Shown here one piece after another: positions 15,804-45,077 of a stretch of 59,270 nt of DNA. The notes below the pieces were generated by a model that was given only the letters and a program-made list of their open reading frames with translations, ran no database searches and was not told where the DNA came from. The stretch spans positions 1 to 59,270 of the IMG/VR virus record IMGVR_UViG_3300025536_000003. One strand, 5' to 3'. The stretch's first letter is position 1. The number at the start of each line of letters is the position of its first letter. Source of the stretch: a virus. A program made the translations under genes and the position numbers.

Positions 15804-16045
15804 GAACTCGCCAGCAAGCCGAGTGTTTCGAGCTTGCCGAGCAGCGAGTTGAACTTGCTGCGCAGACTGTCGAGATCCGCCGTCAGTGCGGTAGTGGTCG
15901 AGGTCGTGGTGGTGGTATTGGTCGCGTCGGCGATATTCGTCTGCCGTACGACCGGGTCAGCTCCGAAGAAGCCCACCAAGTCGGTCGCGCTTTGACCAAT
16001 CTTGAGGCCGTCCGGACGCAGGTCCGATACTTGTTTTGCAGTCAT
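15800..16045 (-). CDS. Thr-run microprotein, possible head fibre/decoration protein (81 aa)
   Basis: Strong SD (AGGAGA). Contains GFFGADPVVRQ, a run NTTTTTSTTT (15887-15922), then the amphipathic helix LDSLRSKFNSLLGKLETLGLL. Confidence 0.55.
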   Translation of the reverse strand: MTAKQVSDLRPDGLKIGQSATDLVGFFGADPVVRQTNIADATNTTTTTSTTTALTADLDSLRSKFNSLLGKLETLGLLASS

Positions 16046-16048
16046 GGT

Positions 16049-16231
16049 TCAGATCTCCTGATGCGTGCCCGGTGCGGGCTTGGGATCGGACCAGCCGTGG
16101 TTGTTGCCGAGCAACTTGTCCGCTTGGCGCGGGTCGACGATGCGGCGTTCGCCGGCATCGGGGTGCTCGATGATCAACTGACGGTTGGCTGGGGTGCGCT
16201 TGCGAGTGCGAGAGGTATGGATGTAAGCCAT
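16049..16231 (-). CDS. Hypothetical small basic protein (60 aa)
   Basis: Start moved to ATG 16231 (MAYIHTSRTRKR...), preceded by AAGGAGA. The track start is a TTG further upstream. Confidence 0.5.
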   Translation of the reverse strand: MAYIHTSRTRKRTPANRQLIIEHPDAGERRIVDPRQADKLLGNNHGWSDPKPAPGTHQEI

Positions 16232-16241
16232 ACGGTCTCCT

Positions 16242-16249
16242 TGTATAAT
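16242..16249 (+). promoter_or_regulatory. Extended -10 element (TGTATAAT) for the plus-strand HNH-like gene
   Basis: TGTATAAT lies 30 nt upstream of ATG 16279 in the 47-bp divergent gap. It is the only plausible promoter for a gene antisense to the late operon. Confidence 0.4.
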
Positions 16250-16278
16250 TAACCCCTGATTCAAACTCGGGGCGATGA

Positions 16279-16986
16279 ATGAACATTTCTCTCAGTGATT
16301 TCGGACTCGAACCCTGGTCTTCCAGCATCGTTCGCGACCGTTATGGTCGGCTCACGGTGCTGGCTGTTGGACGTGTTCCAGGCACGTACCGCTACTTCGC
16401 TGTGTGCTCTTGCGACTGCGACGCTCCGTTGAAGCGTTACCGCATCGACAAATTGCAATCAGGACACACGACAAGCTGCGGTTGTGCGCAGCGAGAAGCG
16501 ACCACGAAGCATGGTCTATGGGACCATCCGCTCTACAGCATTTGGAGTCACGCTATGCAGAGGTGTTATTACGCCTCCGCGTCACGCTTCTCTCGCTATG
16601 GCGGTCGCGGCATTCGTGTCTGTGATCGCTGGCACGATGTTTCGGCTTTCGTCGAAGACATGGCGCCTACGTACTGGCCTGGAGCCTCGCTTGATCGCAT
16701 CGACTGTGACGGTCATTACGAACCAGCCAATTGCCGATGGGTGGAGCTTTCCGCTCAAGCCACCAACAAAACGACAACCATCAGCATCACCCATCAAGGC
16801 CGCACGCTGCGGCTGGTCGAATGGGCTGAAATCGTCGGCATCCCTTATGGGACACTATGGGATCGCTTCGTCAAACAAGGGTGGTCGGTATCCAGAACGC
16901 TAACCACTCCGCCAATGGACGCCCAATCCAGATGCGCGCTAGCCCGCGCGGCATGGAAACCGCGCAAGCGCGAAAAAGCACTGTAA
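16279..16986 (+). CDS. Zn-finger + His-Me (HNH-like) + C-terminal HTH homing-endonuclease-like protein, paralog 1 (235 aa)
   Basis: CSCDCD...SCGC, HGLWDHPLYSIWSHAMQRC, YGGRGIRVCDRW, SLDRIDCDGHYEPANCRW, then LVEWAEIVGIPYGTLWDRFVKQGWS. Antisense to the late operon. Confidence 0.6.
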   Translation: MNISLSDFGLEPWSSSIVRDRYGRLTVLAVGRVPGTYRYFAVCSCDCDAPLKRYRIDKLQSGHTTSCGCAQREATTKHGLWDHPLYSIWSHAMQRCYYASASRFSRYGGRGIRVCDRWHDVSAFVEDMAPTYWPGASLDRIDCDGHYEPANCRWVELSAQATNKTTTISITHQGRTLRLVEWAEIVGIPYGTLWDRFVKQGWSVSRTLTTPPMDAQSRCALARAAWKPRKREKAL

Positions 16987-16999
16987 AATCAATGAGTTA

Positions 17000-18211
17000 C
17001 TATCCCCACAATCTCGATCCCAAATCGGGGTATATCGCGCGAACCCCCCATAGGATGTCGAGCCGGATGATGTCCTCGTCGTCGACGATGGAGAAATCCT
17101 TCACGACTCGGATCGAGATCCCGTCATGCTGCGTGCGGGCCTTGAACGACGCACCATCCGGCAGTGCCAGCGGGCACATGACGAGGGCGAGGGCGTTCTT
17201 GTGGAAGGCCAGGTTCTGCGGGAACGTGGTCGAGTTCGTGCCCAGGAACGTGATCGCGGCATCGTTGATCGGCGCGGCGTCCACGTTCTGGTAGGCGCCA
17301 CTGGACACGATAGCCGGCGAGATCACGACGTCCGACTCGTTGCTGACCGGGGTTACCGCGGTGACCACAGTGAACTGCATCAAGCGTCCGGTGGACTGCT
17401 TGCTGATCGGGTTGACCGAGTAGACATCAGCGATGGTGAAGACGTCCCCGACACGCAGGGAGTTCGCGGTGTCACCACCGAAACCATCCATGTGGATGGT
17501 CATCGTGTTGGCCTGCGGGGTTGAATTGGAGTTCAACGTGCCGTTGTCGATGAGGATGGCCGCATCATCGACTCGCGCGCCGCAGGTATGCATGGCGACG
17601 TTCTGATCACCGTAGATGTCGAAGTTCGCGATCCGACCCAAGAGACCCTTTCGGATCAGTTCGCGCGGCATCGAGTTGTCGTAGATACCCTTGAGGGCAT
17701 CCGCCATCGCCCAGCGGGACGCCGGGTTCAGGACCAGTTTCCGCATGCCGTCATCCGGGACTGCGAACTCGTCCAGGTACTGCGCGGCGGTACCGAGCGT
17801 CGAGAACGAATTGGGCGTGGTACCCGGGGTGCCGGCGGAAATGAACAGGCTGCTGTAGAGCCCGGTCAGCGAGAGATCGACATCGTTCGCCAGTCGGATG
17901 TTCGCCGGCTTCAGGTAGCGCTCGGCATACTGATCCACGGTCAGCGTGAGATCTTCGGAGTTGAAGCCCCAGCCGACGTGTTTCCGCTGGTCGATGGTGA
18001 TCGAGACCGAGCCTTCCTCGACGTCCTGCTTGGACAGCGTGGCTCCGGTGGTGGACGTGAACTTGACCGGCTTCCGGATGGAAACCGAGTTCCCGACCTT
18101 GACGAACTCCTTTTTGTATTCCCGGTGGACATTCATCGCCATGACGAGGTTGTTCGTCAGTTGGAACAACGACTCCTTGGCGATGATGCTCGGGGTGATG
18201 AGCGTATTCAT
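17000..18211 (-). CDS. Major capsid protein, P22-type coat (403 aa)
   Basis: The N-terminus ITPSIIAKESLFQLTNNLVMAMNVHREYKKEFVKVGNSVSIRKPVKF matches the P22 coat family pattern. It follows the scaffold gene. Confidence 0.8.
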   Translation of the reverse strand: MNTLITPSIIAKESLFQLTNNLVMAMNVHREYKKEFVKVGNSVSIRKPVKFTSTTGATLSKQDVEEGSVSITIDQRKHVGWGFNSEDLTLTVDQYAERYLKPANIRLANDVDLSLTGLYSSLFISAGTPGTTPNSFSTLGTAAQYLDEFAVPDDGMRKLVLNPASRWAMADALKGIYDNSMPRELIRKGLLGRIANFDIYGDQNVAMHTCGARVDDAAILIDNGTLNSNSTPQANTMTIHMDGFGGDTANSLRVGDVFTIADVYSVNPISKQSTGRLMQFTVVTAVTPVSNESDVVISPAIVSSGAYQNVDAAPINDAAITFLGTNSTTFPQNLAFHKNALALVMCPLALPDGASFKARTQHDGISIRVVKDFSIVDDEDIIRLDILWGVRAIYPDLGSRLWG

Positions 18212-18249
18212 GGTGGTACTCCGTATGGTCGATACAGGGCACCCTCAAC

Positions 18250-19344
18250 TCAGCGAATGCCGAGTTCCTCCTTGCGTCTGCGCTCGATGTACGAACTTAC
18301 CGGTTCGGCATCAGGGTTGCGCCGGGGTGGCGCAGCGCCGTTCACGGGACGGATGGGGGCGGGTGCGGATGAGGCCCTTGCGGGCGGCCTTGCCTCGGTG
18401 TCGAACCCAGAGTCAGGAGCCTTGTCGGCACTCGTGCCAGACGTGCGTGCTTCGGCTTTCGCCAGAGCACGGATGGCGCCGCGGACGTTGCCTTGATCGA
18501 GCAGGACTCGGATCTGTTTGGCTTCGTCGACGTGGCTGCCGAGATAGTGAAATGCGGCTGGAGCGTCTTCCGCTTCAGCAATGAGAAAGCTGGTCATCAG
18601 CGTGTCAAAGGGTGCTGATGGGTTGTTCTTGACGACGTCTTCGAAGTCATCGAAGCGTTCGGTGCCTTCCTCGAGCATGGCTGCGGCGTCACGCGCGAGC
18701 TTCTGCTGCGCCGCGCGCTGAGCGTCGTCTGCGGTCTCTGATTTGGTTTCAGCCGGCTTGGCATGCGCTTCCTGCGCGGCCTTCCATTCGTCGCGGGCGT
18801 CGGCCCATTCGTCTACAGAATCGAAGTCCTCGACACTCGGTCGTGGCGCTTCCTTGGCGAGCCAGGGCTTGTCCTTGACGTCTTCGGCGTGGCGGGTCTC
18901 CGCGATCTGCGCCTTGATCTCGGCGAGCTCGCGGGCGTGTCGCTCCTGCTGTTCTTGCAGGGCCTGCTGGCTTTCCTCGACCTGCTTGGACAGGGTCTGA
19001 TACCACTTGCGTCGGGATACTCCGGCGGGTGGTAGTTCGTCGCGATCGAGAATGACCGTGGTGCCGTCGGCCTTGGTGACTTCGTAGCGGCCGTCTTCGA
19101 GGAAGCGGCCCTTGCGTTCACCTTTCTCGGCCTTCTCGTCTTCGTCGTCGTCTTTCTCGTCGGCCGACTTGTCCGCAGGCTCCTTCTCTGCCGGATCGTC
19201 CTTGGCCGGCTCACTGTCCGGTCGTGTCTGGCCTTCGTGGCGTTCCAGTTCGTCGGTGACGACAGAGCGCTCGACGGCGTGGTCATCGTTGATCTCGACG
19301 CCATCAGTGCTGTCGATTTCAGGCTCGAAGTTTTCTCCGGACAT
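18250..19344 (-). CDS. Scaffolding protein (364 aa)
   Basis: Highly acidic, coiled-coil-rich ORF directly upstream of the coat gene. Start moved to ATG 19344 after GGTGGAGGA. Confidence 0.7.
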   Translation of the reverse strand: MSGENFEPEIDSTDGVEINDDHAVERSVVTDELERHEGQTRPDSEPAKDDPAEKEPADKSADEKDDDEDEKAEKGERKGRFLEDGRYEVTKADGTTVILDRDELPPAGVSRRKWYQTLSKQVEESQQALQEQQERHARELAEIKAQIAETRHAEDVKDKPWLAKEAPRPSVEDFDSVDEWADARDEWKAAQEAHAKPAETKSETADDAQRAAQQKLARDAAAMLEEGTERFDDFEDVVKNNPSAPFDTLMTSFLIAEAEDAPAAFHYLGSHVDEAKQIRVLLDQGNVRGAIRALAKAEARTSGTSADKAPDSGFDTEARPPARASSAPAPIRPVNGAAPPRRNPDAEPVSSYIERRRKEELGIR

Positions 19345-19373
19345 AAGATCCTCCACCGGCCATGGGCCAGGCG

Positions 19374-19393
19374 AAAAAAAACCCCGCAGGGTC
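19374..19393 (-). terminator. Weak intrinsic terminator after the accessory island
   Basis: Minus strand GACCCTGCGGGGTTTTTTTT: a 4-5 bp stem, a UGCG loop and a U8 run. Confidence 0.3.
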
Positions 19394-19433
19394 TTGTTTC
19401 AGTGATGCCGACGAGCGGCTTTGGGTATGTGAG

Positions 19434-21083
19434 TTAGGTGGCTTCGCGCCACGGCCGGAACAGCATCGACCCGCCCATCAATACAGCCAGCCCCATCATC
19501 AGCCCCGACCACAGTGTCGACCAGTCGCCGAGGTCGACGGACTGACCGGGCTTGTCGCAGCGGAATGCACAGATGTCAGCGGGATAGCCCATGGGGAGAT
19601 CGTCGAAGTCTCGGGCGCCTGCGATGTAGGTGCCGGCGGCGCACAATGGAGAATCAGCCGAGGGCCGCAGCATGTCTGCTGTGGTTGCTGAGCGCAGCGC
19701 CAGCCATGCCGTTATCTCGTCAGCGCTCAGTTCGCTATTGTCCGTGTACGTCGACTCCGGCGGCGTGTAATCGCCGGCTGCGCCGTAGTTTCTATAGTTC
19801 GCCCCCATGCCGCCGCCGAGGCTCCGATTGCTGACGATCATGTTCGGGCCGACTGGGCCGCGTCGCTGGTTGCCTGTAATCCCGCTTGCTGGATTGACGC
19901 TATTAAGATTCGCCTCACGAATGGCTAGGTAGGTGAAGTTGTTATCGCCAGTACCTACGCCGTCTGTCTCTCCGTAGACGACGTTGTTGTAGATCTGGTT
20001 GTTGATCCCGATCCCGTGCAGCACGATGCCGGACACATTCGCACGGTGACTTGCCAGCGTAGGCATGACGACGTTGTGCGCAATCGTGTTCCCGTAGCAG
20101 GATAACTGCACCGAAACGCCGTCACCGACTTGGATCAAGGCATAGTCACCGCCATCAATGCTGAGCGTGAAACTCGCGCCGGAATGTGTCGTGATCTTGT
20201 GCCGCGTGCCGGCCAGATCCCCAGATGTGAACACGGCGTCGTAACGGCTGCTGTTGTATGTCGTCTGCGCCGCCCAGTCGCCATCAGCCAAAGTAATGAC
20301 TGAACTGCCAGGAGTCGTGGCGACCGTGTCGTACTCTCGCAGGACGGTCCACGTCCCGTTATTCGCCAGCGAATCAAAGGAAATGCCTTCCTCCGACGTG
20401 TTTAGTACGATATTCGAAATGATCCGATTGCCGGTGCACGGCAGCCGAAAAGCATTGAGATCGTGGCGGCCCAATGCTCCGATCCCTATTTGCCCGCCCG
20501 TGATGAAGTTGCGCGCAATGTAGTGATTCGAGCCCCAATACCGGATCGGGTAACCGTCCGTGTCGAAGTCGAAGAATCGATTGCCGACGATGTGCGTTGC
20601 GTCAGCGAACTCTTCATACACTTCGACGCCGAAAAAGTCGTTATCTTCGATGTCTATGTTGCGCTGATAGGTGGCGAATCCTTGCGAGATGCGGACCTGC
20701 GGGTTCGTCGTGATCGTGCCGGTCGTCATGAACGTATTACCGGAGAGCACCGCACCATCAACGTGCGTGTCACCGGATTCCGCTTCGGTCTTCAATTCGC
20801 TGTCGTTCGCCATGCGAACTTGCACGCCACGAAGCTCGAAGCCGTCGCGGTACTCGAAAATCACCGAGCTGTTTATGTAGAGCGTGGCGCCTTCCGTAGC
20901 CGTGACGATGACATCTGCGGCGGTCGTGAAGTTCGCCGCAATCGTGTGCGCACCGTCCTGTAACTCGTATTCGCCGGAGCTATTCAGCACTCCGGTCAGG
21001 TCCGTGCCAGCCGTGATCTCAGTCGGGACTGCCCATGCTGGCAACGTCAGCGCAACGCCGAGCAGCGCCGACAGCCACCTCAC
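19434..21083 (-). CDS. Exported right-handed beta-helix (pectate-lyase-fold) protein with a C-terminal TM anchor (549 aa)
   Basis: Signal peptide MRWLSALLGVALTLPAWA|V (GTG start). Repeats GNRFFDF, IARNFITGG, GNRIISNIVLN, GNTIAHNVV, NNQIYNNVV. C-terminus WSGLMMGLAVLMGGSMLFRPWREAT. Confidence 0.6.
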   Translation of the reverse strand: MRWLSALLGVALTLPAWAVPTEITAGTDLTGVLNSSGEYELQDGAHTIAANFTTAADVIVTATEGATLYINSSVIFEYRDGFELRGVQVRMANDSELKTEAESGDTHVDGAVLSGNTFMTTGTITTNPQVRISQGFATYQRNIDIEDNDFFGVEVYEEFADATHIVGNRFFDFDTDGYPIRYWGSNHYIARNFITGGQIGIGALGRHDLNAFRLPCTGNRIISNIVLNTSEEGISFDSLANNGTWTVLREYDTVATTPGSSVITLADGDWAAQTTYNSSRYDAVFTSGDLAGTRHKITTHSGASFTLSIDGGDYALIQVGDGVSVQLSCYGNTIAHNVVMPTLASHRANVSGIVLHGIGINNQIYNNVVYGETDGVGTGDNNFTYLAIREANLNSVNPASGITGNQRRGPVGPNMIVSNRSLGGGMGANYRNYGAAGDYTPPESTYTDNSELSADEITAWLALRSATTADMLRPSADSPLCAAGTYIAGARDFDDLPMGYPADICAFRCDKPGQSVDLGDWSTLWSGLMMGLAVLMGGSMLFRPWREAT

Positions 21084-21220
21084 AGCCCCACCCTCCCCAG
21101 CAACCGCTGCACGATGGCCGGCAGGACACGCAGCACCACGGTGCGCACGTCCTTGCTGATGACGCAGGCGATGATGAGCAGGGCGGCCAGGAGGATGAGG
21201 ACGGGGGCGGCGAAGTGCAT
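21080..21220 (-). CDS. Small single-pass membrane protein (46 aa)
   Basis: MHFAAPVLILLAALLIIACVISK... The ATG lies 1 nt after the upstream stop. GTGA-coupled to the beta-helix gene. Confidence 0.45.
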   Translation of the reverse strand: MHFAAPVLILLAALLIIACVISKDVRTVVLRVLPAIVQRLLGRVGL

Positions 21221-21221
21221 G

Positions 21222-21815
21222 TCAGGTCTTGAGATGAATGGCGACGTTACGCGCAGCCGGTGTCGCGCCGATCGCTCTAGCAGCGATGGTCTTGATCCGC
21301 TCTTCACCGTTGAACTTCACAAACAGGCGATCGGTCATCAGGAACAGCAGACCGCAGTTCGCCATTTCAACTGGCGGCGCTGTGGGCGTCGCATCAGTCT
21401 CGCCTACCGCTGCGGTCAGGATGGTGCCGAGGGCACTGTGATCGTCGTAGGTCGGCGACCAGACCACGGCCACACCCTCCGTTGCGATGACGCCCGTCCC
21501 GGCTACCGGCGTCCCTGCAATTCGGGCCTCGAACTCCGTACAGCCTGACGTGTTTTTCCAGGTGTTGTCACTGCCTGGATTGCTGGTCGTCGCTGCCAGT
21601 ACCAACGCTGAAGGGGATCCACGACTCCCTGCGGTCTGCAGCGCCCAGTCCGTCGTCGTGCCCTGACTCGGATCACCCTTCCAGAGGAACACGTTGCCGG
21701 TATCACTCTCGTAGAACAGCGAGCCGGGATAGATGTTCTGGACCGGTTTGGTATCCGACGACAGACCGATGAACGCCTGCTGCCGCTCACCCTGCGCCAT
21801 GCTTCTGACTGTCAT
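21222..21815 (-). CDS. Hypothetical protein (197 aa)
   Basis: ORF chained within the accessory island. Confidence 0.6.
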   Translation of the reverse strand: MTVRSMAQGERQQAFIGLSSDTKPVQNIYPGSLFYESDTGNVFLWKGDPSQGTTTDWALQTAGSRGSPSALVLAATTSNPGSDNTWKNTSGCTEFEARIAGTPVAGTGVIATEGVAVVWSPTYDDHSALGTILTAAVGETDATPTAPPVEMANCGLLFLMTDRLFVKFNGEERIKTIAARAIGATPAARNVAIHLKT

Positions 21816-21825
21816 ATCTCTATCC

Positions 21826-23409
21826 TCACGCCGCGCTCAGCAAGAGCAGGGTTGTCATGATGTTGCGATTGCGCTTTGCGAGCGCCACTTGCAGTCGTCG
21901 CTGCTCGAGTTCGTCTCGGGCCTGCGCTTCGAGTCGTGCTCGTTCCGTCTTCGCCGCGGTGGCGCGCTTCGCCTGGACTCTGGCCCGGGCTTCGTTGGCT
22001 TCTCGAAGCTCGTCCCGCAGCGCCTTGAGATGCCCGCCGTAATGGTCCTGCCATTGCTGACGGGCTTCGGTGATCGCCTCGTTCAGCGCGATGAACTGTT
22101 CGATCTCGTCACCGTCTTCTTCGGCCTGTTCCCTTGCCACCCGGGCAATGATGTCTTCGGCTTCCGAGGGGACCGGCCCGTAGTCCTTGCGTGACTGCTG
22201 TGCCCGTTCTCTGGCCACCCGCTCGACTTCACGGGGATCGGCCATGCCCATCCAGTAGGGGGAGTAGAAGTCACGGGTGGCCCAGCCTTGGGCGGCGTAT
22301 TCGTCAGTGACGGGCTCGCCGAGCGCAGGCTGCCCGAGCGTCGGCGTTACGGTAATGTCGCCGGCCAGGAGGACGTGGACCTGACCGAGCGTGGCTGCGG
22401 TCAGCGTCGGCGCGATCGAGAGATCATCGGCCGTCAGAGCATCGGTACCGTCGATTGCCAGCACCGGCTCTGAGAGCGTCGGCGTCGTGCTGATGTCGTT
22501 GGCGGTGAGCGCGTGCACTTGCCCGACTGACGGCTCGGTCAGCGTCGGCGTCGTCGCCAGGTCATCGGCGAGCAGCGCATGGACCTGGCCCAGAGCGGGT
22601 TCGGTCAGTGTTGCGGTGGTCGTTACGTCATCCGCGGCGAGGACGTGGGTCTGGCCGATGCTCGGTTCGGTGAGCGTTGGCGTGGTCGAGAGATCGTCGG
22701 CTAGGAGATTGTGATCGCCGCCGGTAGCGGCGGGAAATGGAATGATGATCGCCCCGCCGCGTGAAGTAAGCGGATGATCCGCATACGCTGGCGATCCGGT
22801 GAGAGTCCACGAGCCAGCAATCAAATCAGGCTCTGGCGAACCCCTACCGAAAACCGGCGCGTAAGATACAAGCGCTGCTGGTCGGATCAGGACAGGAGAG
22901 ACTCCGCGCGCCAAGGCTGCAACTTCTTCTGCTGACAGCGCTACGTTCCAGAAGGCCACCTCCGCCACCGAGACGTCGCTGTAAAAGTATCCGTTCCCCG
23001 AATTGTAGGCTCCAATCAGGGTATCGGTCGGCGTCGCAGGGGTTGTGCTTGTGGTGTTTGTTCCAGAGTTCCCGCCATTGAGATACACCGTCCGGCTTGT
23101 TGCCGACGAAAAAACCCCACACCCGTGCTGCCAAACACCGCTCGAAAACCCTGATGATGTCGAAGCGACACGGAATGTATTCGAAACAGCCGCAATCGCT
23201 TGAACCGGATCTCCTCCACTCGCCCCAGCGAACGATAGGTAAAAGGCATCCGTATTACCAGACACGCCGTCAATCTGGAACAATCCAGCGATTGTGTGGT
23301 TCGCTGTTATATTGGCTGGGTTCGCCCAGGCCGAGATCGTAAACGGATAATCCGTCAGGATCGCTGAACCGTAATTCAGCCGGAGATTGGTGCCAAAGGT
23401 GCGTGCCAT
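21826..23409 (-). CDS. LamG/concanavalin-like protein with 22-aa tandem repeats and a C-terminal coiled coil (527 aa)
   Basis: N-terminal features are FTISAWANP...AFYLSF...VYLNG...VAEVAFWNVALSAEEV. Six repeats of H.L.ADD(L/V).TTPTLTEP.(L/I)GQV. Start moved to ATG 23409. Confidence 0.6.
   Translation of the reverse strand: MARTFGTNLRLNYGSAILTDYPFTISAWANPANITANHTIAGLFQIDGVSGNTDAFYLSFAGASGGDPVQAIAAVSNTFRVASTSSGFSSGVWQHGCGVFSSATSRTVYLNGGNSGTNTTSTTPATPTDTLIGAYNSGNGYFYSDVSVAEVAFWNVALSAEEVAALARGVSPVLIRPAALVSYAPVFGRGSPEPDLIAGSWTLTGSPAYADHPLTSRGGAIIIPFPAATGGDHNLLADDLSTTPTLTEPSIGQTHVLAADDVTTTATLTEPALGQVHALLADDLATTPTLTEPSVGQVHALTANDISTTPTLSEPVLAIDGTDALTADDLSIAPTLTAATLGQVHVLLAGDITVTPTLGQPALGEPVTDEYAAQGWATRDFYSPYWMGMADPREVERVARERAQQSRKDYGPVPSEAEDIIARVAREQAEEDGDEIEQFIALNEAITEARQQWQDHYGGHLKALRDELREANEARARVQAKRATAAKTERARLEAQARDELEQRRLQVALAKRNRNIMTTLLLLSAA
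22315..22713 (-). repeat. About six tandem 66-bp coding repeats
   Basis: Repeats HVLAADDVTTTATLTEPALGQV / HALLADDLATTPTLTEPSVGQV and similar, inside 21826..23409. Confidence 0.8.
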
Positions 23410-23411
23410 GG

Positions 23412-23894
23412 CTAGGTCGTCGTGTACTCGATCGACACGGCCCACAACTCCATGTCACCCGAGGCGTTAGTACCGCTCGTGCCATTCTCTCGACCGAGTC
23501 GCAGCGTCATGTTGTCACCAGCGGCGATGGTCGGTGTTCCGAGCGCTTCGCTGATCTCGCCCATCAGTCCCGCAGTTCCTGGCACTGCATCATCTGCACT
23601 GGCTTCGACGGACGAGAAGCTATCAGTGTCGATATCTTCTCCATCCGCGATTGCCATGGCCTCAGTGCGGATCGCGACGTTGTTCGTCGTAGCTGAGGCC
23701 ATGCTGTACTGTGCTTTGACAGTCATGCCGCTGGCGTAATTCTCCGGCACGCGGAACGTCCAGAGACAGAGTTCGTCAGTCGTGTCGTCGAACAGCAGGT
23801 ACGGTCGGCCGGCTGCGGTGAATGCCAGCGCGGGCGGGTTCGTCGGATCGCCTATGGCGGCAAGAATCGGCAACAGAATCGTACCGGTCGCCAT
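23412..23894 (-). CDS. Hypothetical protein (160 aa)
   Basis: ORF chained within the accessory island. Confidence 0.6.
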   Translation of the reverse strand: MATGTILLPILAAIGDPTNPPALAFTAAGRPYLLFDDTTDELCLWTFRVPENYASGMTVKAQYSMASATTNNVAIRTEAMAIADGEDIDTDSFSSVEASADDAVPGTAGLMGEISEALGTPTIAAGDNMTLRLGRENGTSGTNASGDMELWAVSIEYTTT

Positions 23895-24328
23895 TAGAGC
23901 TTGCTCCGTATGGCGTCACGCAACTCGCGCAGCGTGCGTGTCGGGTGATCGGTGATGGCGCCCGCCGCTGCCTTCATCGCAGCGAGGTTCGATGCCCCGT
24001 CGATCCCGTCCAGCAGCGCGTTCATCTTCAGCGCGTGCCGGTTGAGTTCGTCGAGCAACACTTCCGCGAGCGCGCGCATGATAGTTTGCTGCTGCTCGAT
24101 CTCCGCAGCCAGAGTATCGAGTCGGCTGGCTTCATCGGCGAGGTCAAGCGCCTGGCGCTCGCTTTCGGATAGCAGCGCAACCGTATCGCCTGTGACGATC
24201 CAGTAACGCGAATCGAAGCCGGTTACAGCCGAGAGATCGGGATCGATGATCCAGTCCTCGATCGGATAGTCCGGCGTGTTGACGCTCTGCCGGTACTCTC
24301 GCGTCGTTCTGTGTAGCACGTCAGCCAT
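23894..24328 (-). CDS. Hypothetical protein (144 aa)
   Basis: ORF with 1-nt overlaps on both sides. C-terminal half is helical. Confidence 0.6.
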   Translation of the reverse strand: MADVLHRTTREYRQSVNTPDYPIEDWIIDPDLSAVTGFDSRYWIVTGDTVALLSESERQALDLADEASRLDTLAAEIEQQQTIMRALAEVLLDELNRHALKMNALLDGIDGASNLAAMKAAAGAITDHPTRTLRELRDAIRSKL

Positions 24329-26409
24329 CAGGGCAGCCTCATCGCGTAGACCGGGCCGTTGTTGCGGTTGACCACAATGGCGACTTCTTCCTTCCCATAT
24401 TTCGCAACTTGAAATCGCGTATAGGTTCCGGTCGAGTTAGTTGTGCCTTCCGGCACTACGTCGCCTATCGAAATCTGTTTCCAAGTCCAATTAAGATCCG
24501 CAGGATCGGGGCTGTCCTTAGTCAGCACAGAAATGTGCGCACCATGGTTGTACAGCAGTCCTTGATGGCGATCAGACCATTGCAGCCCCATCCCACCCCT
24601 GCGCACAGGGATTTCGCCGCCCTGCACAATTTCTTTCAATGGGGCATCGAGATTCTTCAGATCTCGGATATAGACCGGACAGCGCGTCGAGCATGAACGC
24701 CACGCTGCGATCACGAGAAGGTCATGCACCGGGTCGATCGCAGTCGCGAGATCGATTGGTATCCCTGACATCTTGTAGCCGTAGCGATATTCTCCAGTCA
24801 CGTTGTCGTAGACCGTCATCGGCATGTTGTAACTTGGAAGCTGATAGATCAGATCGCGTGCTTCGTCGTAGACCGCTGATCCACCAGACAAAGCGGCGGC
24901 GGTGTGTTCCTCGGTGTGCCGCCATTGTTTCGTATCGAGGTCGAGAAAATAGGCCCGTTTCACATTGGCTGCATCAGAGCCCATCAACAGATCGTAGATC
25001 CCCCGCATCATGTAGAACTCGTTCGTGCGCGGGATGTAACCAACGGTTGAATAGGTGTGCGGTGGTAGCGGCGATCCGTCCGGATAGATGCCTTTGTTGT
25101 CCGGGGTCATCGGGTCTTTGTCCATCCACGGCGCTAACGCCCCTGTGTAAGGATCGGTTGCGCGGTGCCACAGACGCGTGGAGAGGTCAAAAGCGTAGAC
25201 CTCAGACCCGGAATACCCAGCGTGCCCGCCGCCGTAGAGCAGCAATGATCCGTGTTCACCATAGCCTGTGGCGAGTGCGCCGCCATTCCAGCAGGCGATC
25301 ACGCACATCTGCCCGCTATTCGCTGACCACGCTGCGTTGCCGGGGGCTTTAGGGTTGAGCTTCGGATCTAGCTTTGGATCGACATCCGTCATCGTGTTCA
25401 AAGAGATAGGGGTCCACACGCCCGGTTCGAGGTCGGCGACCCAGGCCGGGGCGGCGCTCGTTGGCGGTTCCGGCGCTGGTTCGGCCGGCTTGACCGGGCA
25501 CTTGCACGCGCATGTGCATGTGCATGCACAGTCGGTGGGCTCTGTTGTCACTGGCGGAACTGGAGTCGATTCGGCTGGCGGCTCTACAGATGCATCGAGG
25601 GCATCGCGGAACGGCTGTCGAGACATCACGAAATAGTCGTAATCGACGCGCCCCACGGGGTGCTCGGTCGGTTTCTTGCCGGTCATGTAGACCGTCAACA
25701 TGGCTCGGTGGAAACCCGGTCCGCTGCCATTCAGCGTCGCATCATCCCGGTAGGTGTAGCGTTTCCACTCTCCATCGACGCGCTGCCAGAAGACGACCCG
25801 GCTGTTCGGTTTGCCGTAGTCTCCTAGCGTGATCTCGATGTAGTGCTCTTCCCACACATCGGGGCGAGAAATAGCACAATCCTGCGGCGGCTGGCCGGTG
25901 TTGTGATACCGGCAGTCGTGATCTCCAGTCTGGAAAATGTGATTGTGGTAGTTCGCGGGATCAGGGATCGCGAACGTCTTGGCGCCACAATTGTAATTCG
26001 GCTGTAGAAACGGCTTTCCGCTCCACTTGTAGCTGTCGACGATTTCCAGGTCAGTACAGGAACTCGAACCGCGCCAGATGTTGAGCAGCTTTCTTGTAGG
26101 CCAGGGCGAGGTCAGCGTGACTTCATCGGATCGGACCTTGAATGCGACATAGAGCGACTGCCCTGGACCCACTGCTGGCCAATCGAGCACGCCATACCAA
26201 CCGCCTGCGTTTGCCCCACTCATCGAGGGAATGGTGAAGCGGAGCATGCCGCCCTCGACGACCGGCGTCGCATCGCCTGGGTAGAGGGTCCCGGCGAGCT
26301 CGGACGCATCGTCGAACGAGTCGCAGACGAACACGCCCGGCTTGTCGCACGGCAGGGCCTGCGCAGTGCTAACGAACAGAGCCAGGATTAGAAAGGCGAA
26401 GCGCATCAT
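24328..26409 (-). CDS. Exported lectin/polysaccharide-lyase-like + Kelch-like beta-propeller protein (693 aa)
   Basis: Start moved to ATG 26409 (ATGA-coupled). Signal peptide MMRFAFLILALFVSTAQA|L. Linker TDCACTCTCACKCPVKPAEPAPEPP. C-terminal repeats such as LLLYGGGHAGYSGSEVYAFDLSTRLW. Confidence 0.55.
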   Translation of the reverse strand: MMRFAFLILALFVSTAQALPCDKPGVFVCDSFDDASELAGTLYPGDATPVVEGGMLRFTIPSMSGANAGGWYGVLDWPAVGPGQSLYVAFKVRSDEVTLTSPWPTRKLLNIWRGSSSCTDLEIVDSYKWSGKPFLQPNYNCGAKTFAIPDPANYHNHIFQTGDHDCRYHNTGQPPQDCAISRPDVWEEHYIEITLGDYGKPNSRVVFWQRVDGEWKRYTYRDDATLNGSGPGFHRAMLTVYMTGKKPTEHPVGRVDYDYFVMSRQPFRDALDASVEPPAESTPVPPVTTEPTDCACTCTCACKCPVKPAEPAPEPPTSAAPAWVADLEPGVWTPISLNTMTDVDPKLDPKLNPKAPGNAAWSANSGQMCVIACWNGGALATGYGEHGSLLLYGGGHAGYSGSEVYAFDLSTRLWHRATDPYTGALAPWMDKDPMTPDNKGIYPDGSPLPPHTYSTVGYIPRTNEFYMMRGIYDLLMGSDAANVKRAYFLDLDTKQWRHTEEHTAAALSGGSAVYDEARDLIYQLPSYNMPMTVYDNVTGEYRYGYKMSGIPIDLATAIDPVHDLLVIAAWRSCSTRCPVYIRDLKNLDAPLKEIVQGGEIPVRRGGMGLQWSDRHQGLLYNHGAHISVLTKDSPDPADLNWTWKQISIGDVVPEGTTNSTGTYTRFQVAKYGKEEVAIVVNRNNGPVYAMRLP

Positions 26410-26780
26410 GCCGGATCCGGGAACGTGATCGAGATCGCGTCGAGCGTGAACGTGTTGCCCGACGTCACCGCCTGACTCGACGACAGCGCCTGCGCGGCGA
26501 GCAGCGCGGCTGTGGCGCTGGTCTTGGAATACGCCCAATGCGTCGCGGTGCCGGTCCCGGTCACGCTGCCGTCCGTGATCGCGGGAATGACCGTGCGTCG
26601 ACCGCTGCTCGCGCCGTTCTGCAGGCTGCCGGCCGTGAGGCTGGTCTTGTTGCCGAGCGTGTAGGTGCTGGTGGCCTCGGTGTAGTTCGCGGGCTCCTGG
26701 CTGCAGATGTCGAGGCGGCTACCATTGGTCACGACATAGGCCAAGCCGTTGTCGAGGACGTCGTCGTTCAGGTACGGCAT
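26406..26780 (-). CDS. Hypothetical protein (124 aa)
   Basis: ORF, Ser/Thr/Gly-rich. Confidence 0.6.
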   Translation of the reverse strand: MPYLNDDVLDNGLAYVVTNGSRLDICSQEPANYTEATSTYTLGNKTSLTAGSLQNGASSGRRTVIPAITDGSVTGTGTATHWAYSKTSATAALLAAQALSSSQAVTSGNTFTLDAISITFPDPA

Positions 26781-26781
26781 G

Positions 26782-27018
26782 TCAGATCTCCGCGAAGTCG
26801 ATCACGTCATCAGTCGGCACCACGCCACCCGCTGCGGTGACCGCCTCGGCTTCGGTGTCGTGCATCGAGACGCGGACATAGCGGTCCACGATCTCGCCCC
26901 GCGCGCCACGCACGGGACACAGGCAGTAGACGTACCAGGCGCGGTCTCGGCTTAGCGTGCCATCGGGCAGGCGTTTCCAGCCGTCTTCCACCCGCACGCG
27001 GTCGGTGATGTCGATCAT
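26782..27018 (-). CDS. Hypothetical protein (78 aa)
   Basis: ORF directly after the portal gene. Confidence 0.55.
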   Translation of the reverse strand: MIDITDRVRVEDGWKRLPDGTLSRDRAWYVYCLCPVRGARGEIVDRYVRVSMHDTEAEAVTAAGGVVPTDDVIDFAEI

Positions 27019-27027
27019 GATGTGCTC

Positions 27028-29391
27028 CTACTGAATTCTGATTTCGCCGAAGCCGACGACCTGCATACCCACAGGGTTGCCCTGCTCGTCGAAGGTGGCG
27101 ACGCGATCGGCCTTGATGAAAGCGGTGATCATGTCGGCTGATTGCGCGATCCGTTCCGCACTGGCACTCGTTGCTGCTACGGCTTCCCGAATGGCCTGGC
27201 CGTTCTGTGCCATGCCCTGAGCGATCTGTTGACCGATGGACTGGAATGCGGCCATGGCCTGTTCCGTACGGGTCATGATGTCTTGATGGGCCTGGAGCAT
27301 CTGACCGACTTCTTGTCCGGCCTGCTGTTCGACACCGGTACGCATATCGTCGACGCTCTTCTCCAGAGCCATGACGCGCTTGTCGTAGTCGAGTGCGGCC
27401 TTCTCGCGCTTCAATTCGTCGGCCTGTTTGTTCATGGCCTGTTCGACCTTGGCTCTGTCGGCATCCATCTTGGCTTTGGTCAATTCGACCTGCGCCTTCT
27501 CCAGTTCCGGCATGGCTTGCTGAAGCTGGGCCTGCAACTGCTGGATCATCATGTCCATCTGCTGCATCTGCTGCTCGACGTGGGCGGGTAACGGTTCTTC
27601 GCCACTGGTCTTGGCATCTTCGGCGGCCCTGATCTCCGGCGGTAACAGGTACTTCAGGCGCTCTGAGAACTGCTTGGCAAGCGGCCAGTCCTGCATCTGC
27701 GCGATGAGGTCGCCGGTCAGTGCACCGGCCGCAGGAACCGCGGTGATGAAGCGTTCCATCTGATCGGACACTTCCTGTCGCAGCGTGGTGTAACTGGGGC
27801 CGATGTCCACGGAGACTTCGAAGTTGCAGATCGAGAGGTCGTTCAGCTTGACCATCTGCCCGGTCTGCTCGTCTCGTATCTCCTGATTCACGATCAGGCT
27901 GACTTCGGACTCGTCGGCATTCAGCATCCTTGCGGCACGGCGGGTATCCAGGATCTTCGGGATGAGATCTGAGACGACCTTGGCCTCGTAGTTCAGCGAA
28001 CGGCCCATGTTGTCGATGAACGGGAACGACATGACGTCACTTTCCCGCTGACGCGCCATGATGGCCTTGCCTGAAGTCTCGTTCGATCGATTCCCGACAC
28101 CAGCGTCGTACATTCCAACAGCACCCTTGATGTCTTCCCGGGCTTGATTCGCTTCCTGCAACATCCCCGTCGCGGCCTGCTGTGGGAACTGTCGCTGCGG
28201 TGGGTTGGGATTGACGCTGTCGTCGTAGGGCAGGAAGGCGTGCGTCATGTAGTTCGCCGTCTTCCACAGTCCCTGGTAGTCGCCGAGTTGGCTGGCACCG
28301 ATGATGAACGGCACCTTGGGCTCGAGGGCTATACGTTCGATTCCAGCGGTGCGCATGTAGTCGACCATGCGCTGGGCGTCATGGGCGTAACGGATGAGGC
28401 TGCGGTAGCGGATACGGCCACCACCGCTGTTCTGCTCCTTGCCCCAGACCGAGACGATCGGAATGTAACGCCCCGGATAGTCGGTCTGACGTTCCAAGAT
28501 TTCTAGACCGGTGGCCTTGTACCACTCGACCTTGTGATCCTGGATGGTGCGGTCCTTGACGACCGTGATCCCTTGAGTCTTGAGTTCGTCGGCGATCGGT
28601 TCCAACTGATCGGCGTCGACCACTCGGCCATCGGAGAGCAGGACAATCGTTCGACTGACCGGGACCTTGCGGAAATACTCACCGACTCTGACAGTGTCTC
28701 CGGCAAACCAGTCCTGCAGATGGGTCGGTACCGGGAGATCAGCGGCAGACATCGCACCAGGAAAGTCCCGCTCGAATGACTTCCTGGGCATCGTGACAAC
28801 GATCTGGCACCACCATGCATTCTCTCGGCTGTACGAATAGTCGGAGGGATCCCAGTAGACGGAGAACTGATCGGTGATCCGGTGATACTTGATGACCTGA
28901 TCGAAGCCGGTCTTCGAATACTCGGTGACGATACGGTAATGTCCGAAACCGGAGGACACGGCCTGTTCGAACGCCATGTCGCGGGCTTCTTTCGCGCCCC
29001 CATCACGGACCGTGGCGCGGATGAGACCGGCATAGGCTTCGTGGGCTTCGACTTTCTGGCCCTGCTCCGTGACGAACTCACGGGGTGCCATCTGGCCCTC
29101 ACCGGGACGGGCGATGATCTCGGCGCGGTTCTGTCGCCAGTCGCCGATGACCTGATCCGTATACTGGTTCAGCAGCGGGAACTGCATGCAGGGACGACCA
29201 TCTGCCTCACGCTGCTGCCTGTCCGCTTCTGACCAGGTGTTGCCGGCGAGGATGGCGAGGTCTTTCTCCGCGGCTTCGCGGTTCTCCCGCTCGAACTCAT
29301 AGGCGAGCTCGTAGTTGTCGAGCATCTCCTGAATGATTTCAGCGTCGCCCGCGAGCGGGGCGTTGGCTTCCTGGGTCTCAGTCGCCACCAC
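27028..29391 (-). CDS. Portal protein, P22-like with a long C-terminal coiled-coil barrel (787 aa)
   Basis: Size and position after terL fit a portal. The Gln-rich C-terminal helix is QQMQQMDMMIQQLQAQLQQAMPELEKAQVELTKAKMD. Start set to GTG 29391 after GGAG; the track start at 29445 is also GTG. Confidence 0.8.
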   Translation of the reverse strand: MVATETQEANAPLAGDAEIIQEMLDNYELAYEFERENREAAEKDLAILAGNTWSEADRQQREADGRPCMQFPLLNQYTDQVIGDWRQNRAEIIARPGEGQMAPREFVTEQGQKVEAHEAYAGLIRATVRDGGAKEARDMAFEQAVSSGFGHYRIVTEYSKTGFDQVIKYHRITDQFSVYWDPSDYSYSRENAWWCQIVVTMPRKSFERDFPGAMSAADLPVPTHLQDWFAGDTVRVGEYFRKVPVSRTIVLLSDGRVVDADQLEPIADELKTQGITVVKDRTIQDHKVEWYKATGLEILERQTDYPGRYIPIVSVWGKEQNSGGGRIRYRSLIRYAHDAQRMVDYMRTAGIERIALEPKVPFIIGASQLGDYQGLWKTANYMTHAFLPYDDSVNPNPPQRQFPQQAATGMLQEANQAREDIKGAVGMYDAGVGNRSNETSGKAIMARQRESDVMSFPFIDNMGRSLNYEAKVVSDLIPKILDTRRAARMLNADESEVSLIVNQEIRDEQTGQMVKLNDLSICNFEVSVDIGPSYTTLRQEVSDQMERFITAVPAAGALTGDLIAQMQDWPLAKQFSERLKYLLPPEIRAAEDAKTSGEEPLPAHVEQQMQQMDMMIQQLQAQLQQAMPELEKAQVELTKAKMDADRAKVEQAMNKQADELKREKAALDYDKRVMALEKSVDDMRTGVEQQAGQEVGQMLQAHQDIMTRTEQAMAAFQSIGQQIAQGMAQNGQAIREAVAATSASAERIAQSADMITAFIKADRVATFDEQGNPVGMQVVGFGEIRIQ

Positions 29392-29554
29392 TCTGCTCCA
29401 TGATGGTCTTGTCGCACGCTGCGCAGGCGATCCGAATGGCGCCACGACGGCCGGCGGGATGGGCTTGCGTCATGTAGATGCGGAACAGTTCGCCGTGGCA
29501 ATCCGCACAGGCCGTGGGCTTGACCGGTTTCGGCATTGCGACGACGTTGTTCAT
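29378..29554 (-). CDS. Small zinc-ribbon protein between terL and portal (58 aa), not in the ORF track
   Basis: The ATG at 29554 overlaps the terL stop as ATGA. Translation: MNNVVAMPKPVKPTACADCHGELFRIYMTQAHPAGRRGAIRIACAACDKTIMEQSGGD. Confidence 0.5.
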   Translation of the reverse strand: MNNVVAMPKPVKPTACADCHGELFRIYMTQAHPAGRRGAIRIACAACDKTIMEQSGGD

Positions 29555-31576: not shown

Positions 31577-31577
31577 T

Positions 31578-31865
31578 TCAATACGACCTACACTCGCCCC
31601 AGGCTTGCCGACCCGTCAGGCCGGCGTCGATCCAATTACGGGCACTGAGGACGTAGCGCTGCACGACCTGGTCGGCTTCTCTCATCCAGGTGTCCCATTC
31701 CCGCTGCGCGGCCGGCAGCGCTTCGATCCTTTCCACGAGACGGGCCCACGTCGGGCATTCGCTCGAGTAATTGCGGGCGTAACCGTCGGCACGGGCCGCC
31801 CAGGCCACCGTCAGCACGGCCATCGCGACCAGCGTCAGGATGACGATGTAGTCAGTCCGGTTCAC
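31578..31865 (-). CDS. Small exported/membrane protein (95 aa)
   Basis: GTG start. N-terminal hydrophobic segment YIVILTLVAMAVLTVAWAA. Confidence 0.5.
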   Translation of the reverse strand: MNRTDYIVILTLVAMAVLTVAWAARADGYARNYSSECPTWARLVERIEALPAAQREWDTWMREADQVVQRYVLSARNWIDAGLTGRQAWGECRSY

Positions 31866-44980: not shown

Positions 44981-44987
44981 GGACCAC

Positions 44988-45016: not shown

Positions 45017-45077
45017 GCCCCTCAGTGTTTCGATCTTGGATTTGCCCTCTGAGACGGGCTGCCAGATCCTGAGATTC

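Follow-up and report, generated by a model that had tools for sequence, protein, structure and literature searches.

In the head module of P22-like phages the portal gene (gp1) is followed by the scaffold gene (gp8) and the coat gene (gp5). The same order of a P22-type portal (PF16510), a scaffold (phrog_8865), and a P22-type coat gene (PF11651) is found in the virus genome IMGVR_UViG_3300025536_000003 of IMG/VR (59,270 bases, analyzed over its whole length and referred to here as the window), but the window differs from the P22-like module by 7.6 kb of inserted DNA. The insertion is an island on the minus strand that places nine open reading frames (ORFs) between portal and scaffold, encoding proteins of 78, 124, 693, 144, 160, 527, 197, 46, and 549 amino acids (aa) that are named by their lengths (w78 to w549, table 1). 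We consider it somewhat more probable than its opposite that the island is a mosaic glycan-interaction module, composed of a fiber cassette and of envelope-targeted proteins, at a recombination-permissive portal–scaffold junction in a temperate podophage. The window is also unlike P22 in its tail genes, which include an SU10/P22 gp4-like adaptor and an Hc3 hub; no homolog of gp10, gp26, or gp9 was detected.

The fiber cassette is most easily compared with the neck and tail fibers of the Ralstonia podophage GP4 (gp80 fiber I and gp77 adaptor; PDB 8JOU; PF23140 and PF23148) and with the collar-whiskers of Bas63 and Sf14. The GP4 fibers attach through an Ig-like adaptor ring or collar around the head–tail adaptor, and homologous whiskers are present on Bas63 (PMC11445570, PMC12609058). 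The likeness consists of a Gp80 homolog as the first gene in two of the related islands (L033 and L052; loci and protein homologs from other contigs carry L and P numbers), of w124 as a weak member of the same family, of a w144-w160-LamG gene trio that travels with Gp80 and Gp77 homologs in L065, L066, and L119, and of accessory fibers that are additional to a main tail fiber. In contrast, the fiber genes of GP4-like cultured phages such as JC1 follow the capsid gene and not the portal gene, the window island contains no identified Gp77 homolog, and GP4 is without exported partners. The LamG-tipped, LLLL-tailed fiber with its w160 partner has no solved or cultured counterpart.

Phage depolymerases are usually viewed as virion spikes or as soluble enzymes that are freed at lysis. 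With tailspikes (P22, Sf6, Det7, and CBA120) and soluble depolymerases w549 shares a predicted right-handed parallel beta-helix, modular core exchange, and a host-specific, horizontally mobile gene (93% aa identity to a copy in another phage). Unlike in tailspikes, the conserved ends of w549 are a candidate Sec signal peptide and a membrane anchor rather than a particle-binding domain, and the predicted site of action is the periplasm before lysis rather than the virion or the medium after release. Bacterial periplasmic glycan enzymes (VexL, AlgL/AlgG, PslG, and RbmB) have a signal peptide and a beta-helix or jelly-roll fold in common with the island proteins, and a homolog of w693 (P0007) is encoded inside an exopolysaccharide (EPS) locus. 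The window genes differ from those of the VexL and AlgG type in being phage-borne and part of a late structural operon, and their products have no Pfam, NCBIfam, or PDB sequence match to those families.

Phage T5 encodes Llp-type receptor-blocking lipoproteins beside its receptor-binding genes, and lom of phage lambda is an example of a late-region gene for an exported protein. T5 Llp, phi80/N15 Cor, and the lambda morons lom and bor are, like the proteins proposed here, exported phage proteins encoded beside adsorption genes, and the proposed benefit, a shield of progeny against debris and the exclusion of superinfection, is the same. These known proteins are small, either lipoproteins or proteins of the outer membrane, and they mask a protein receptor, whereas the window proteins are large, enzyme-like, aimed at glycans, and without promoters of their own. 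Fiber cassettes, depolymerases, and exported phage proteins are each already known separately. Their combination, that is the portal–scaffold placement together with candidate Sec-addressed, tethered beta-helix enzymes with swappable cores and lectin-tipped GP4-like fibers, was not found in cultured phages or in the literature searched.

Recurrent Insertions at the Portal–Scaffold Junction

Vibrio phage 1.211.A and Thalassomonas phage BA3, the best cultured-phage matches to the window portal, have contiguous portal, scaffold, and coat genes. A total of 29 loci on related viral and genomic contigs that show both portal and coat genes were compared. Measured from where the portal match ends to where the coat gene starts, the distance was at most 1.43 kb in 21 of the 29 relatives, ∼1.8 kb in four, and 3.5–4.0 kb in another four, and is ∼9.4 kb in the window. 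An earlier annotation made from the window sequence alone (the original prediction) had claimed that an otherwise contiguous head module is interrupted here, and the comparison bears this out. It had counted ten intervening ORFs although its own list contained nine, and nine were found; the same nine had been called independently in two public assemblies of this contig.

A 54.6-kb contig (L006) with a coat protein 90% identical to that of the window and a scaffold 65–68% identical (BLASTP) contains an eight-gene island at the same place. This island encodes a 707-aa homolog of w693 (L006_707, 31% identity) with a signal peptide of its own, a 545-aa beta-helix-like protein that also has a signal peptide, a 182-aa protein that corresponds to the C-terminal 160 aa of w527 (65–70% identity) as a separate gene, and a 177-aa protein that shares only the first 57 aa with w197. 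In L052, a P22-type portal is combined with a different capsid type, and the island at the same place encodes proteins of 168, 145, 536 (with an LLLL tail), 198, 85, 518, and 487 aa. Smaller inserts with fiber-like genes are present between portal and scaffold in L016, L041, L044, and L033. These comparisons indicate that the portal–scaffold junction is a recurrent insertion site in this and in other phage lineages, and that the island is not unique to the window phage.

The genes of the window island are tightly packed, and neighboring genes either overlap (by 4, 1, 1, and 4 nt) or are separated by gaps of 1–10 nt, so that the original description of all junctions as 1–4 nt overlaps applies to the former only. 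The start of w693 overlaps the stop codon of w124 in an ATGA motif. Because w527 and w46 lack a Shine-Dalgarno sequence of their own and start 1–2 nt past the preceding stop codon, they appear to depend on upstream translation and, judged by these features, must be translationally coupled to the upstream gene.

Predicted Export Signals and Exchangeable Cores

The case for envelope targeting is built on w693 and w549, to which the original prediction had assigned signal peptides. Signal peptides were called with a home-made heuristic scan for Sec type I features (a basic n-region, an uncharged hydrophobic core of ∼8–16 residues, and small residues at –3 and –1) and by conservation in homologs. 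Both proteins display these features, with a basic n-region, an uncharged core of ∼10–13 residues, and an AXA motif, and cleavage is predicted between MMRFAFLILALFVSTAQA and LPCD in w693 and between M/VRWLSALLGVALTLPAWA and VPTE in w549. A signal peptide that differs in sequence and is alike in character was identified in 10 out of 13 w549 homologs, and the remaining three begin exactly at the predicted mature N-terminus (TPI.AGTDL). The L006 counterparts of w693 and w549 both keep a signal peptide despite 31% identity or none, respectively, and signal peptides were observed in a substantial fraction of the bacterial w693 homologs inspected.

The w549 gene has a GTG start codon with a GGAGG Shine-Dalgarno sequence. 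AlphaFold2 (AF2) models the protein as a right-handed parallel beta-helix (predicted TM score, pTM, 0.77) followed by a C-terminal helix at residues 521–536, in agreement with the earlier description of a beta-helix protein with a C-terminal transmembrane (TM) anchor. Foldseek matches include PL6 lyases, the periplasmic epimerase AlgG, GH87, GH110, RbmB, and phage tailspikes with E-values of ∼1e-4; a fold search of BFVD returned generic tailspikes and does not discriminate between the hypotheses considered below. No Pfam match was found for w549, and a C-terminal sorting signal (PEP-CTERM, GlyGly-CTERM, or MYXO-CTERM) was absent in an NCBIfam scan of the full protein and of the last 68 aa (E ≤ 1). 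The beta-helix begins at approximately residue 20, directly past the signal peptide, and the N-terminal particle-binding domain of tailspikes is missing.

In our view the strongest single argument that export and anchoring matter is provided by a phage with an HK97-type head (L054), in which a 540-aa protein (P0049) is preceded by a w46-like peptide. The DNA of L054 and of the window shares only two blocks of 197 bp with ∼92% identity (91% in the w46 block). Block 1 consists of w46 and the signal-peptide-coding start of the following gene, and block 2 consists of the final 65 codons, which include the membrane anchor; between the two blocks, P0049 has a beta-helix core unrelated to that of w549. 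The w46 peptide is 93% identical to the product of a 46-aa gene upstream of P0049 in L054–L056. A core that is the same as that of w549 (90.6% nucleotide identity) is found in another phage (L005). The pattern suggests that catalytic cores have been swapped between conserved export and anchor ends. Since the signal peptides are conserved across homologs, the forms without them start at the cleavage site, and the ends are kept around a different core, the signal peptides of w693 and w549 are likely to be functional units and export is predicted for both proteins.

Scans of viral contigs with single sequences returned no match for w693 and only one, 93% identical copy of w549, and a scan with the w549 family alignment added only three distant loci, which were uninformative. 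The w549 family spans at least five head-gene backbones, and its members invariably lie near portal, capsid, or neck genes. They are located between the P22-type portal and the scaffold (window and L052), upstream of TerS in an SU10-like phage together with three further proteins that carry signal peptides (L053), downstream of an HK97-type capsid gene (L054), and between the cement protein and gpZ of a lambda-like siphophage together with a second signal-peptide beta-helix protein (L060). Several paralogous signal-peptide beta-helix genes are present per phage in L052, L053, and L060. Members without a signal peptide are encoded just before the head–tail connectors (L058) and inside a w160 cassette (L119).

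A homolog of w197 is located upstream of the beta-helix gene, usually adjacent to it, in L005, L054, and L052. Two proteins in a w197-like position (L053_161 and L058_148) gave no BLAST match and were assigned by eye only, based on C-terminal motifs shared with P0071 and P0065. The w197 family is rare (36 representatives among 1.84e9 proteins), and 11 out of 17 homologs inspected have a signal peptide, which w197 itself lacks. The beta-helix, w197, and apparently the Gp80-like families (the last from a single example, L052_168) thus contain members with and without signal peptides at equivalent positions.

Further signal peptides were seen among relatives of the island proteins. The Gp80-like L052_168 (L052 6586–7092) has a canonical one, with cleavage between MKLLMSRAAALALALLLSVPAFA and TSKGNTWEN, the w197-family proteins (P0060–P0082) mostly have one, and distant w160-domain proteins in low-GC viral contigs (L129–L137) have signal peptides, as do their neighbors.

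A Jelly-Roll and Kelch Protein Related to Secreted Bacterial Proteins

The AF2 model of w693 (pLDDT 77) consists of an N-terminal helix, a beta-jelly-roll, a disordered Cys/Pro-rich linker, and a six-bladed propeller. Foldseek matches of the jelly-roll include PL14 (5gmt) and PL36 (6kcv), both described as alginate lyases, with E-values of ∼1e-7 and target TM scores of 0.53–0.63, and the lectin Emp47 with a similar score. The model of residues 320–693 matches KLHL20, KEAP1, and others with probability 1.0 and a target TM score of 0.6, and Pfam Kelch matches remain below the cutoff (17–19 bits). The models are consistent with a lyase- or lectin-like jelly-roll followed by a Kelch propeller, as had been proposed.

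Besides the query, 34 homologs of w693 were identified, most of which are bacterial proteins of 1000–1160 aa, many with signal peptides. One of them (P0007) is encoded among glycosyltransferases, a polysaccharide deacetylase, and a Wzx flippase in the EPS locus mentioned above, and in P0026 and P0027 the C-terminal tail is a hydrophobic stretch with basic residues after it, which resembles PEP-CTERM by eye only. w693 contains 16 Cys residues, compared with 0–3 in the head and tail proteins. The homologies suggest that w693 is of bacterial origin and derived from secreted proteins of the EPS-locus type.

A 628-aa protein on a 2.9-kb Logan contig (P0013) has a signal peptide nearly identical to that of w693 (MRFAILILALFVSTVQA). 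Its domain order is opposite to that of w693, with the lyase-like jelly-roll at the C-terminus as in the bacterial homologs, which suggests that the domains were shuffled recently while the export signal was kept.

A Probable Accessory Fiber Cassette

The first post-portal gene in L033 and L052 encodes a member of PF23140 (“Podophage GP4 fiber I protein gp80”) or phrog_240, and the L033 protein (L033_146) matches chain a of PDB 8JOU, a GP4 virion protein (E = 8e-7). The w124 gene of the window holds the same post-portal position, and a w124 homolog is part of the cassette in L119. The match of w124 to phrog_240 (E = 0.0018, compared with 1e-18 for L033_146) covers the same profile region as in bona fide members, and w124 was the sole match among the window proteins to a custom Gp80 hidden Markov model (20.3 bits). 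A phmmer search of PDB with w124 was negative. Membership of w124 in the Gp80 family is probable but not secure.

The w160 family is highly conserved, with 189 homologs of 45–94% identity, and was identified in 73 viral loci. A fiber-like gene always follows the w160 homolog, and a Gp80-like or w144-like gene often precedes it. Homologs of w144 are located immediately upstream of w160 homologs in L064, L065, L066, and L119 (36–52% identity) and in 14 of the 73 viral loci, and the N-terminus of w527 is homologous to the genes that follow w160 in L064, L066, and L119. The order of a w144 homolog, a w160 homolog, and an N-terminal-LamG protein or fiber is kept in L064, L065, L066/L068, and L119. 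The surroundings of this trio differ: in L065 it is located after the tape measure gene and an S74-chaperone tail fiber and before a homolog of the Gp77 fiber–tail adaptor (PF23148), in L066 it follows a Gp80 homolog (PF23140), and in L119 it is placed between the capsid gene and the head–tail connector, with a Gp77 homolog recognized by eye. A Pfam search identified no Gp77 homolog (PF23148) among the island ORFs of the window.

The third protein of the trio, w527, contains a LamG domain (PF13385, 66.1 bits compared with a Pfam cutoff of 27.6), six 22-aa repeats with the consensus ADDLxTTPTLTEPxLGQVHxL, and a coiled coil. The LamG-like domain, the coiled coil, and repeats had all been predicted, the last as 66-bp units; the repeats are evident at the protein level and not detectable at the DNA level. 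A C-terminal tail like that of w527, with a coiled coil, a basic cluster, and LLLLSAA, LLLLAA, or LLLI, ends the last gene before the scaffold in L006, L016, L033, L041, L044, and L052, six islands that were counted as independent. The tail was first considered as a membrane anchor, and this was rejected because the 8–12 hydrophobic residues that follow the basic cluster at the extreme C-terminus are too short for a TM helix. No structural or sequence match to the tail was found, and it may be a docking peptide for the capsid, the portal, or the scaffold.

None of the four proteins w124, w144, w160, and w527 carries an export signal. Based on their homology and their synteny with GP4 Gp80 and Gp77 neighbors in unrelated phages, they most likely form an accessory virion fiber set of the GP4 kind with a distal lectin. 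The original prediction had read the whole island as an envelope-targeted, glycan-directed gene set, which is retained for w693, w46, and w549 only, and the unconventional receptor-binding module that it listed last among its options fits the four fiber proteins alone. The island as the only receptor-binding module of the phage was rejected, as a conserved main tail-fiber-like gene, an adaptor, and the Hc3 hub are encoded downstream of the coat gene.

Interpretation of the Island

The mosaic interpretation starts from observations on the genes present and their coupling, on homologies and folds, on the conserved export signals, and on the recurring cassettes. Export, enzymatic activity and its substrate, the virion location of the fiber proteins, and the biological benefit are inferred from these as follows. 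Both kinds of genes would be translated from a late polycistronic mRNA. The proteins w124, w144, w160, and w527 would be made and assembled in the cytoplasm as parts of the virion, where the LamG lectin of w527 would be held off the particle by the 22-aa repeats and the coiled coil while the C-terminal tail docks. w693 would cross the inner membrane by Sec and its signal peptide would be cleaved, and w549 would be exported likewise but remain anchored in the inner membrane through its C-terminal helix, probably alongside w46; its constant genetic partner is w197. Late in infection the enzymes would degrade a polymer of the capsule, EPS, or O-antigen type, either on the periplasmic side or at the cell surface, and this polymer would be of the same kind as that bound by the LamG lectin fibers. 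Placed at the periplasmic face, where Wzy- or ABC-dependent polymers pass, w549 would cut capsule or EPS before lysis. As a precedent, VexL, a beta-helix lyase of the periplasm, degrades the Vi capsule in transit and a cytosolic version does not (Whitfield laboratory, PMC6003464), and a signal peptide would therefore be expected to change the reach of such an enzyme. The dying cell would lose glycan that could otherwise trap progeny or let in superinfecting phage. The likely pay-off would be that progeny get out of an encapsulated cell, that fewer of them re-adsorb to debris, and that superinfection is excluded.

Several points weigh against this interpretation. A megablast search of positions 17000–31600 against cultured phages and a tblastn search of the w527 C-terminus, w549, w197, and w693 against 50,697 cultured phage records gave no match, and because no cultured-phage homologs of the island proteins were found, no annotation or proteomic data can be transferred. 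The signal-peptide calls come from the heuristic scan and from conservation. The Kelch and LamG domains could be pure binding modules, the enzymatic role being assigned from the fold. For w124, no match to the Pfam Gp80 model was obtained (E ≤ 0.01) and the hhalign probability was low. Beta-helix homologs without a signal peptide are present in the same kind of cassette (L119 and L058), and the family may therefore act from the cytoplasm or on the virion. Finally, signal-peptide ORFs are not generally enriched near w160 cassettes (18 out of 417, compared with 37 out of 931), and the idea that every w160 cassette has a fixed place for a signal-peptide gene was rejected on this basis. A signal-peptide protein is also encoded inside the cassette of L066 (8217–8597). 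The lack of enrichment indicates that the combination of fibers and exported enzymes is a lineage-specific assembly (window, L006, and L052) and not a universal unit.

A more specific form of the mosaic interpretation is possible but on balance doubtful. Here w549, exported by Sec and tethered to the membrane together with w46 and w197, would act as an inside-out depolymerase that destroys the glycan receptor of the phage's own lectin-tipped fibers where this receptor is assembled, in the periplasm, with progeny release, protection from debris, and superinfection exclusion as the result. By analogy, this would be a bacterial-virus counterpart of a receptor-destroying enzyme, delivered via the secretion pathway of the host.

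Among the alternatives, an unlikely one that still survives best is that the exported proteins are lysis accessories without any link to the fibers, which open an additional envelope layer (capsule, sheath, S-layer glycan, or dense EPS) and thereby let virions out once holin, endolysin, and spanin have acted. Late expression, envelope targeting, and glycanase folds, all predicted, would fit this role, the w197/w549 pair of L005 lies directly upstream of putative holin-like and spanin-like ORFs (recognized by eye from hydrophobic segments and position), and the paralogous signal-peptide beta-helix genes of L052, L053, and L060 are in line with it. The lysis genes of the window, however, are ∼7–15 kb away and the exported genes are interleaved with fiber genes and not with lysis genes. 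Computationally, lysis accessories are inseparable from the receptor-destroying variant of the mosaic interpretation.

Lysogenic conversion appears quite unlikely as an explanation. The genes would in that case be morons that are expressed from the prophage and remodel the exopolysaccharide or capsule of the host for the benefit of the lysogen, with no lytic role. The phage does encode an integrase and a helix-turn-helix (HTH) repressor-like protein, w693 appears to be derived from bacterial EPS-locus proteins, the GC content at third codon positions (GC3) of w693, w527, and w549 (0.68–0.73) is below that of portal and coat (0.76–0.84), and lom is a precedent for exported proteins in late regions. 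The transcriptional autonomy of morons, with a promoter and a terminator of their own, is not seen here. A scan with the sigma-70-type consensus alone identified nothing promoter-like on the coding strand in the interval from TerS to the coat gene (16000–32000, minus strand), and a terminator scan found no terminator flanking the island. A weak hairpin followed by T8 in the 89-nt gap before the scaffold gene had been proposed to close the block; the sequence is present, but it is no more stable than shuffled sequence (fold z = –0.82) and was not called in the terminator scan, and it was rejected as a terminator. Starts that overlap or abut upstream stops, the missing Shine-Dalgarno sequences of w46 and w527, and the recurrence of the same genes in the late operons of several phages also disagree with morons.

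It is very unlikely that all nine proteins are virion hardware, that is fibers or tailspike-like depolymerases on the head or neck whose N-termini are assembly elements or at least not used for export. The position in a structural late operon with translational coupling, the constant head and neck neighborhoods of the w549 family in at least five backbones, the homologs without signal peptides in equivalent fiber cassettes or head–neck positions (L119 and L058), and the Foldseek matches to phage tailspikes would all be expected of virion proteins. Tailed phage virions assemble in the cytoplasm, whereas the N-termini in question are canonical, with the property rather than the sequence conserved in 10 out of 13 homologs and with homology to the shorter forms starting exactly past the cleavage site. 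The TM helix of w549 and the membrane peptide w46, the absence of an N-terminal particle-binding domain, the many secreted bacterial proteins among the relatives of w693, and the high Cys content of w693 likewise disagree with a virion location.

That host genes acquired by horizontal transfer have only recently piled up at a permissive site, selectively neutral and without function, is most improbable, since the variable insertion site, the lower GC3 of the island genes, and the mobile elements nearby (the HNH endonuclease gene beside coat and the intein of the L006 portal) are outweighed by intact and coupled reading frames, by the same families in the same order in phages whose coats are only 90% identical or unrelated, and by clearly conserved signal-peptide and anchor ends.

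If the inside-out proposal is true, a late enzyme that is sent through Sec and tethered in the periplasm would represent a different way of dealing with capsule or EPS, in which the polymer is cut at its site of assembly before lysis. This would have consequences for progeny release, superinfection exclusion, and the evolution of phage–host range, and enzymes active on nascent polysaccharide could be obtained from such phages. The analysis also defines a widespread accessory fiber cassette (w144-w160-LamG fiber, 73 viral loci) that is tied to the recently solved GP4 neck fibers, and presents the portal–scaffold junction as a recurrent cargo site. The dimorphism of families with and without a signal peptide at equivalent positions is directly testable.

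Genome Context and Additional Features

The window has an exact terminal direct repeat of 127 bp (1–127 and 59144–59270), and the same contig was recovered at ∼59.2 kb in two independent public assemblies, for which reason it probably represents a complete phage genome, circular or circularly permuted, of ∼59.14 kb. The tyrosine integrase, a protein with a Gp3-like recombination directionality factor domain, and the HTH repressor-like protein are encoded at 53189–54106 (the integrase), 46520–47758, and 44883–45398; the integrase and the repressor-like protein indicate that the phage is temperate. The late genes are on the minus strand in the order TerS, TerL, portal, island, scaffold, and coat, followed by a glycosyltransferase-like gene pair and tail genes, the latter encoding the SU10/P22 gp4-like adaptor, the tail-fiber-like protein, and the Hc3 hub. 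The coordinates of the island and of other features are listed in table 1.

Table 1. Features of the Portal–Scaffold Island and of Its Surroundings in the 59,270-Base Window
Feature	Position	Strand	Description
Tail-fiber-like gene	10933-12042		Main tail-fiber-like gene, conserved; downstream of coat
Coat	17000-18211	-	Major capsid protein; PF11651 P22_CoatProtein in public gene calls
Scaffold	18250-19344	-	phrog_8865 head scaffolding protein, E = 1e-17; downstream boundary of the island
Hairpin + T8	19374-19393	-	Weak hairpin in the 89-nt gap before the scaffold gene
w549	19434-21083	-	Predicted signal peptide aa 1-18 (nt 21030-21083); beta-helix aa ~20-450; TM helix aa ~522-542 (nt 19458-19520); short basic tail
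w46	21080-21220	-	Single-pass membrane peptide of 46 aa, translationally coupled to w549; hydrophobic aa 1-19
w197	21222-21815	-	Small two-domain partner protein preceding beta-helix genes; no signal peptide in the window copy
w527	21826-23409	-	LamG aa 14-164; repeats aa 237-368 (nt 22306-22701); C-terminal coiled coil, basic cluster, LLLLSAA
w160	23412-23894	-	Second gene of the fiber trio; highly conserved, uniform length of ~160 aa
w144	23894-24328	-	First gene of the fiber trio; helical or coiled-coil protein
w693	24328-26409	-	Predicted signal peptide aa 1-18; jelly-roll 26-263; Cys/Pro-rich linker 272-309; six-bladed Kelch propeller 320-693
w124	26406-26780	-	Probable divergent member of the Gp80/phrog_240 family (GP4 fiber I, neck whisker)
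w78	26782-27018	-	78 aa; AGGAG ribosome-binding site
Portal	27028-29388	-	PF16510 P22_portal, E = 2.6e-151; 786 aa in public gene calls; upstream boundary of the island
Endolysin	34112-34579		
Tyrosine integrase	53189-54106		

Database searches with the island proteins were largely negative. An NCBIfam scan of all island proteins returned nothing, and PDB sequence searches with w124, w160, w197, w78, L033_227, L033_299, and the w549 family profile returned nothing significant. The only PHROG match of w78, at the reporting threshold, is a family of unknown function (phrog_27757, E = 0.0083), and w78 has no Pfam, NCBIfam, or PDB match.

The portal gene of the closest relative, L006 (6627–10001), encodes 1124 aa and includes an intein-like insert of ∼310 aa with a weak LAGLIDADG_3 match; the portal halves on either side of the insert are 71% identical to the window portal. 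In the window, an HNH homing-endonuclease gene (16279–16986, phrog_374, E = 9e-54) is located directly downstream of the coat gene within the late operon, on the opposite (plus) strand.

Two paralogous glycosyltransferase-like genes follow the coat gene of the window (13996–15803, minus strand) and encode proteins of 407 and 195 aa that both match phrog_1574, the 407-aa protein with additional weak GT2 and methyltransferase matches. Sugar genes are also present in the structural modules of relatives, with a glycosyltransferase and a DegT aminotransferase in L006, MptE/Maf-like, pyruvyl-transferase-like, and GT2 genes in L054, and an MptE-like and a sialic-acid-synthase-like gene in L119, where the pyruvyl-transferase and GT2 (L054) and sialic-acid-synthase (L119) labels are by-eye sequence readings with no model match. 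The presence of sugar genes in structural modules suggests a modification of virion or host glycans.

Small envelope-targeted proteins are encoded outside the island as well. A 112-aa lipoprotein with a lipobox (LLTGC) is overlapped by a 107-aa protein with an N-terminal TM segment (55047–55705, plus strand), adjoining the integrase region, and a 95-aa signal-peptide protein is encoded just upstream of TerS (31578–31865, minus strand). These proteins could be spanins or exclusion proteins.

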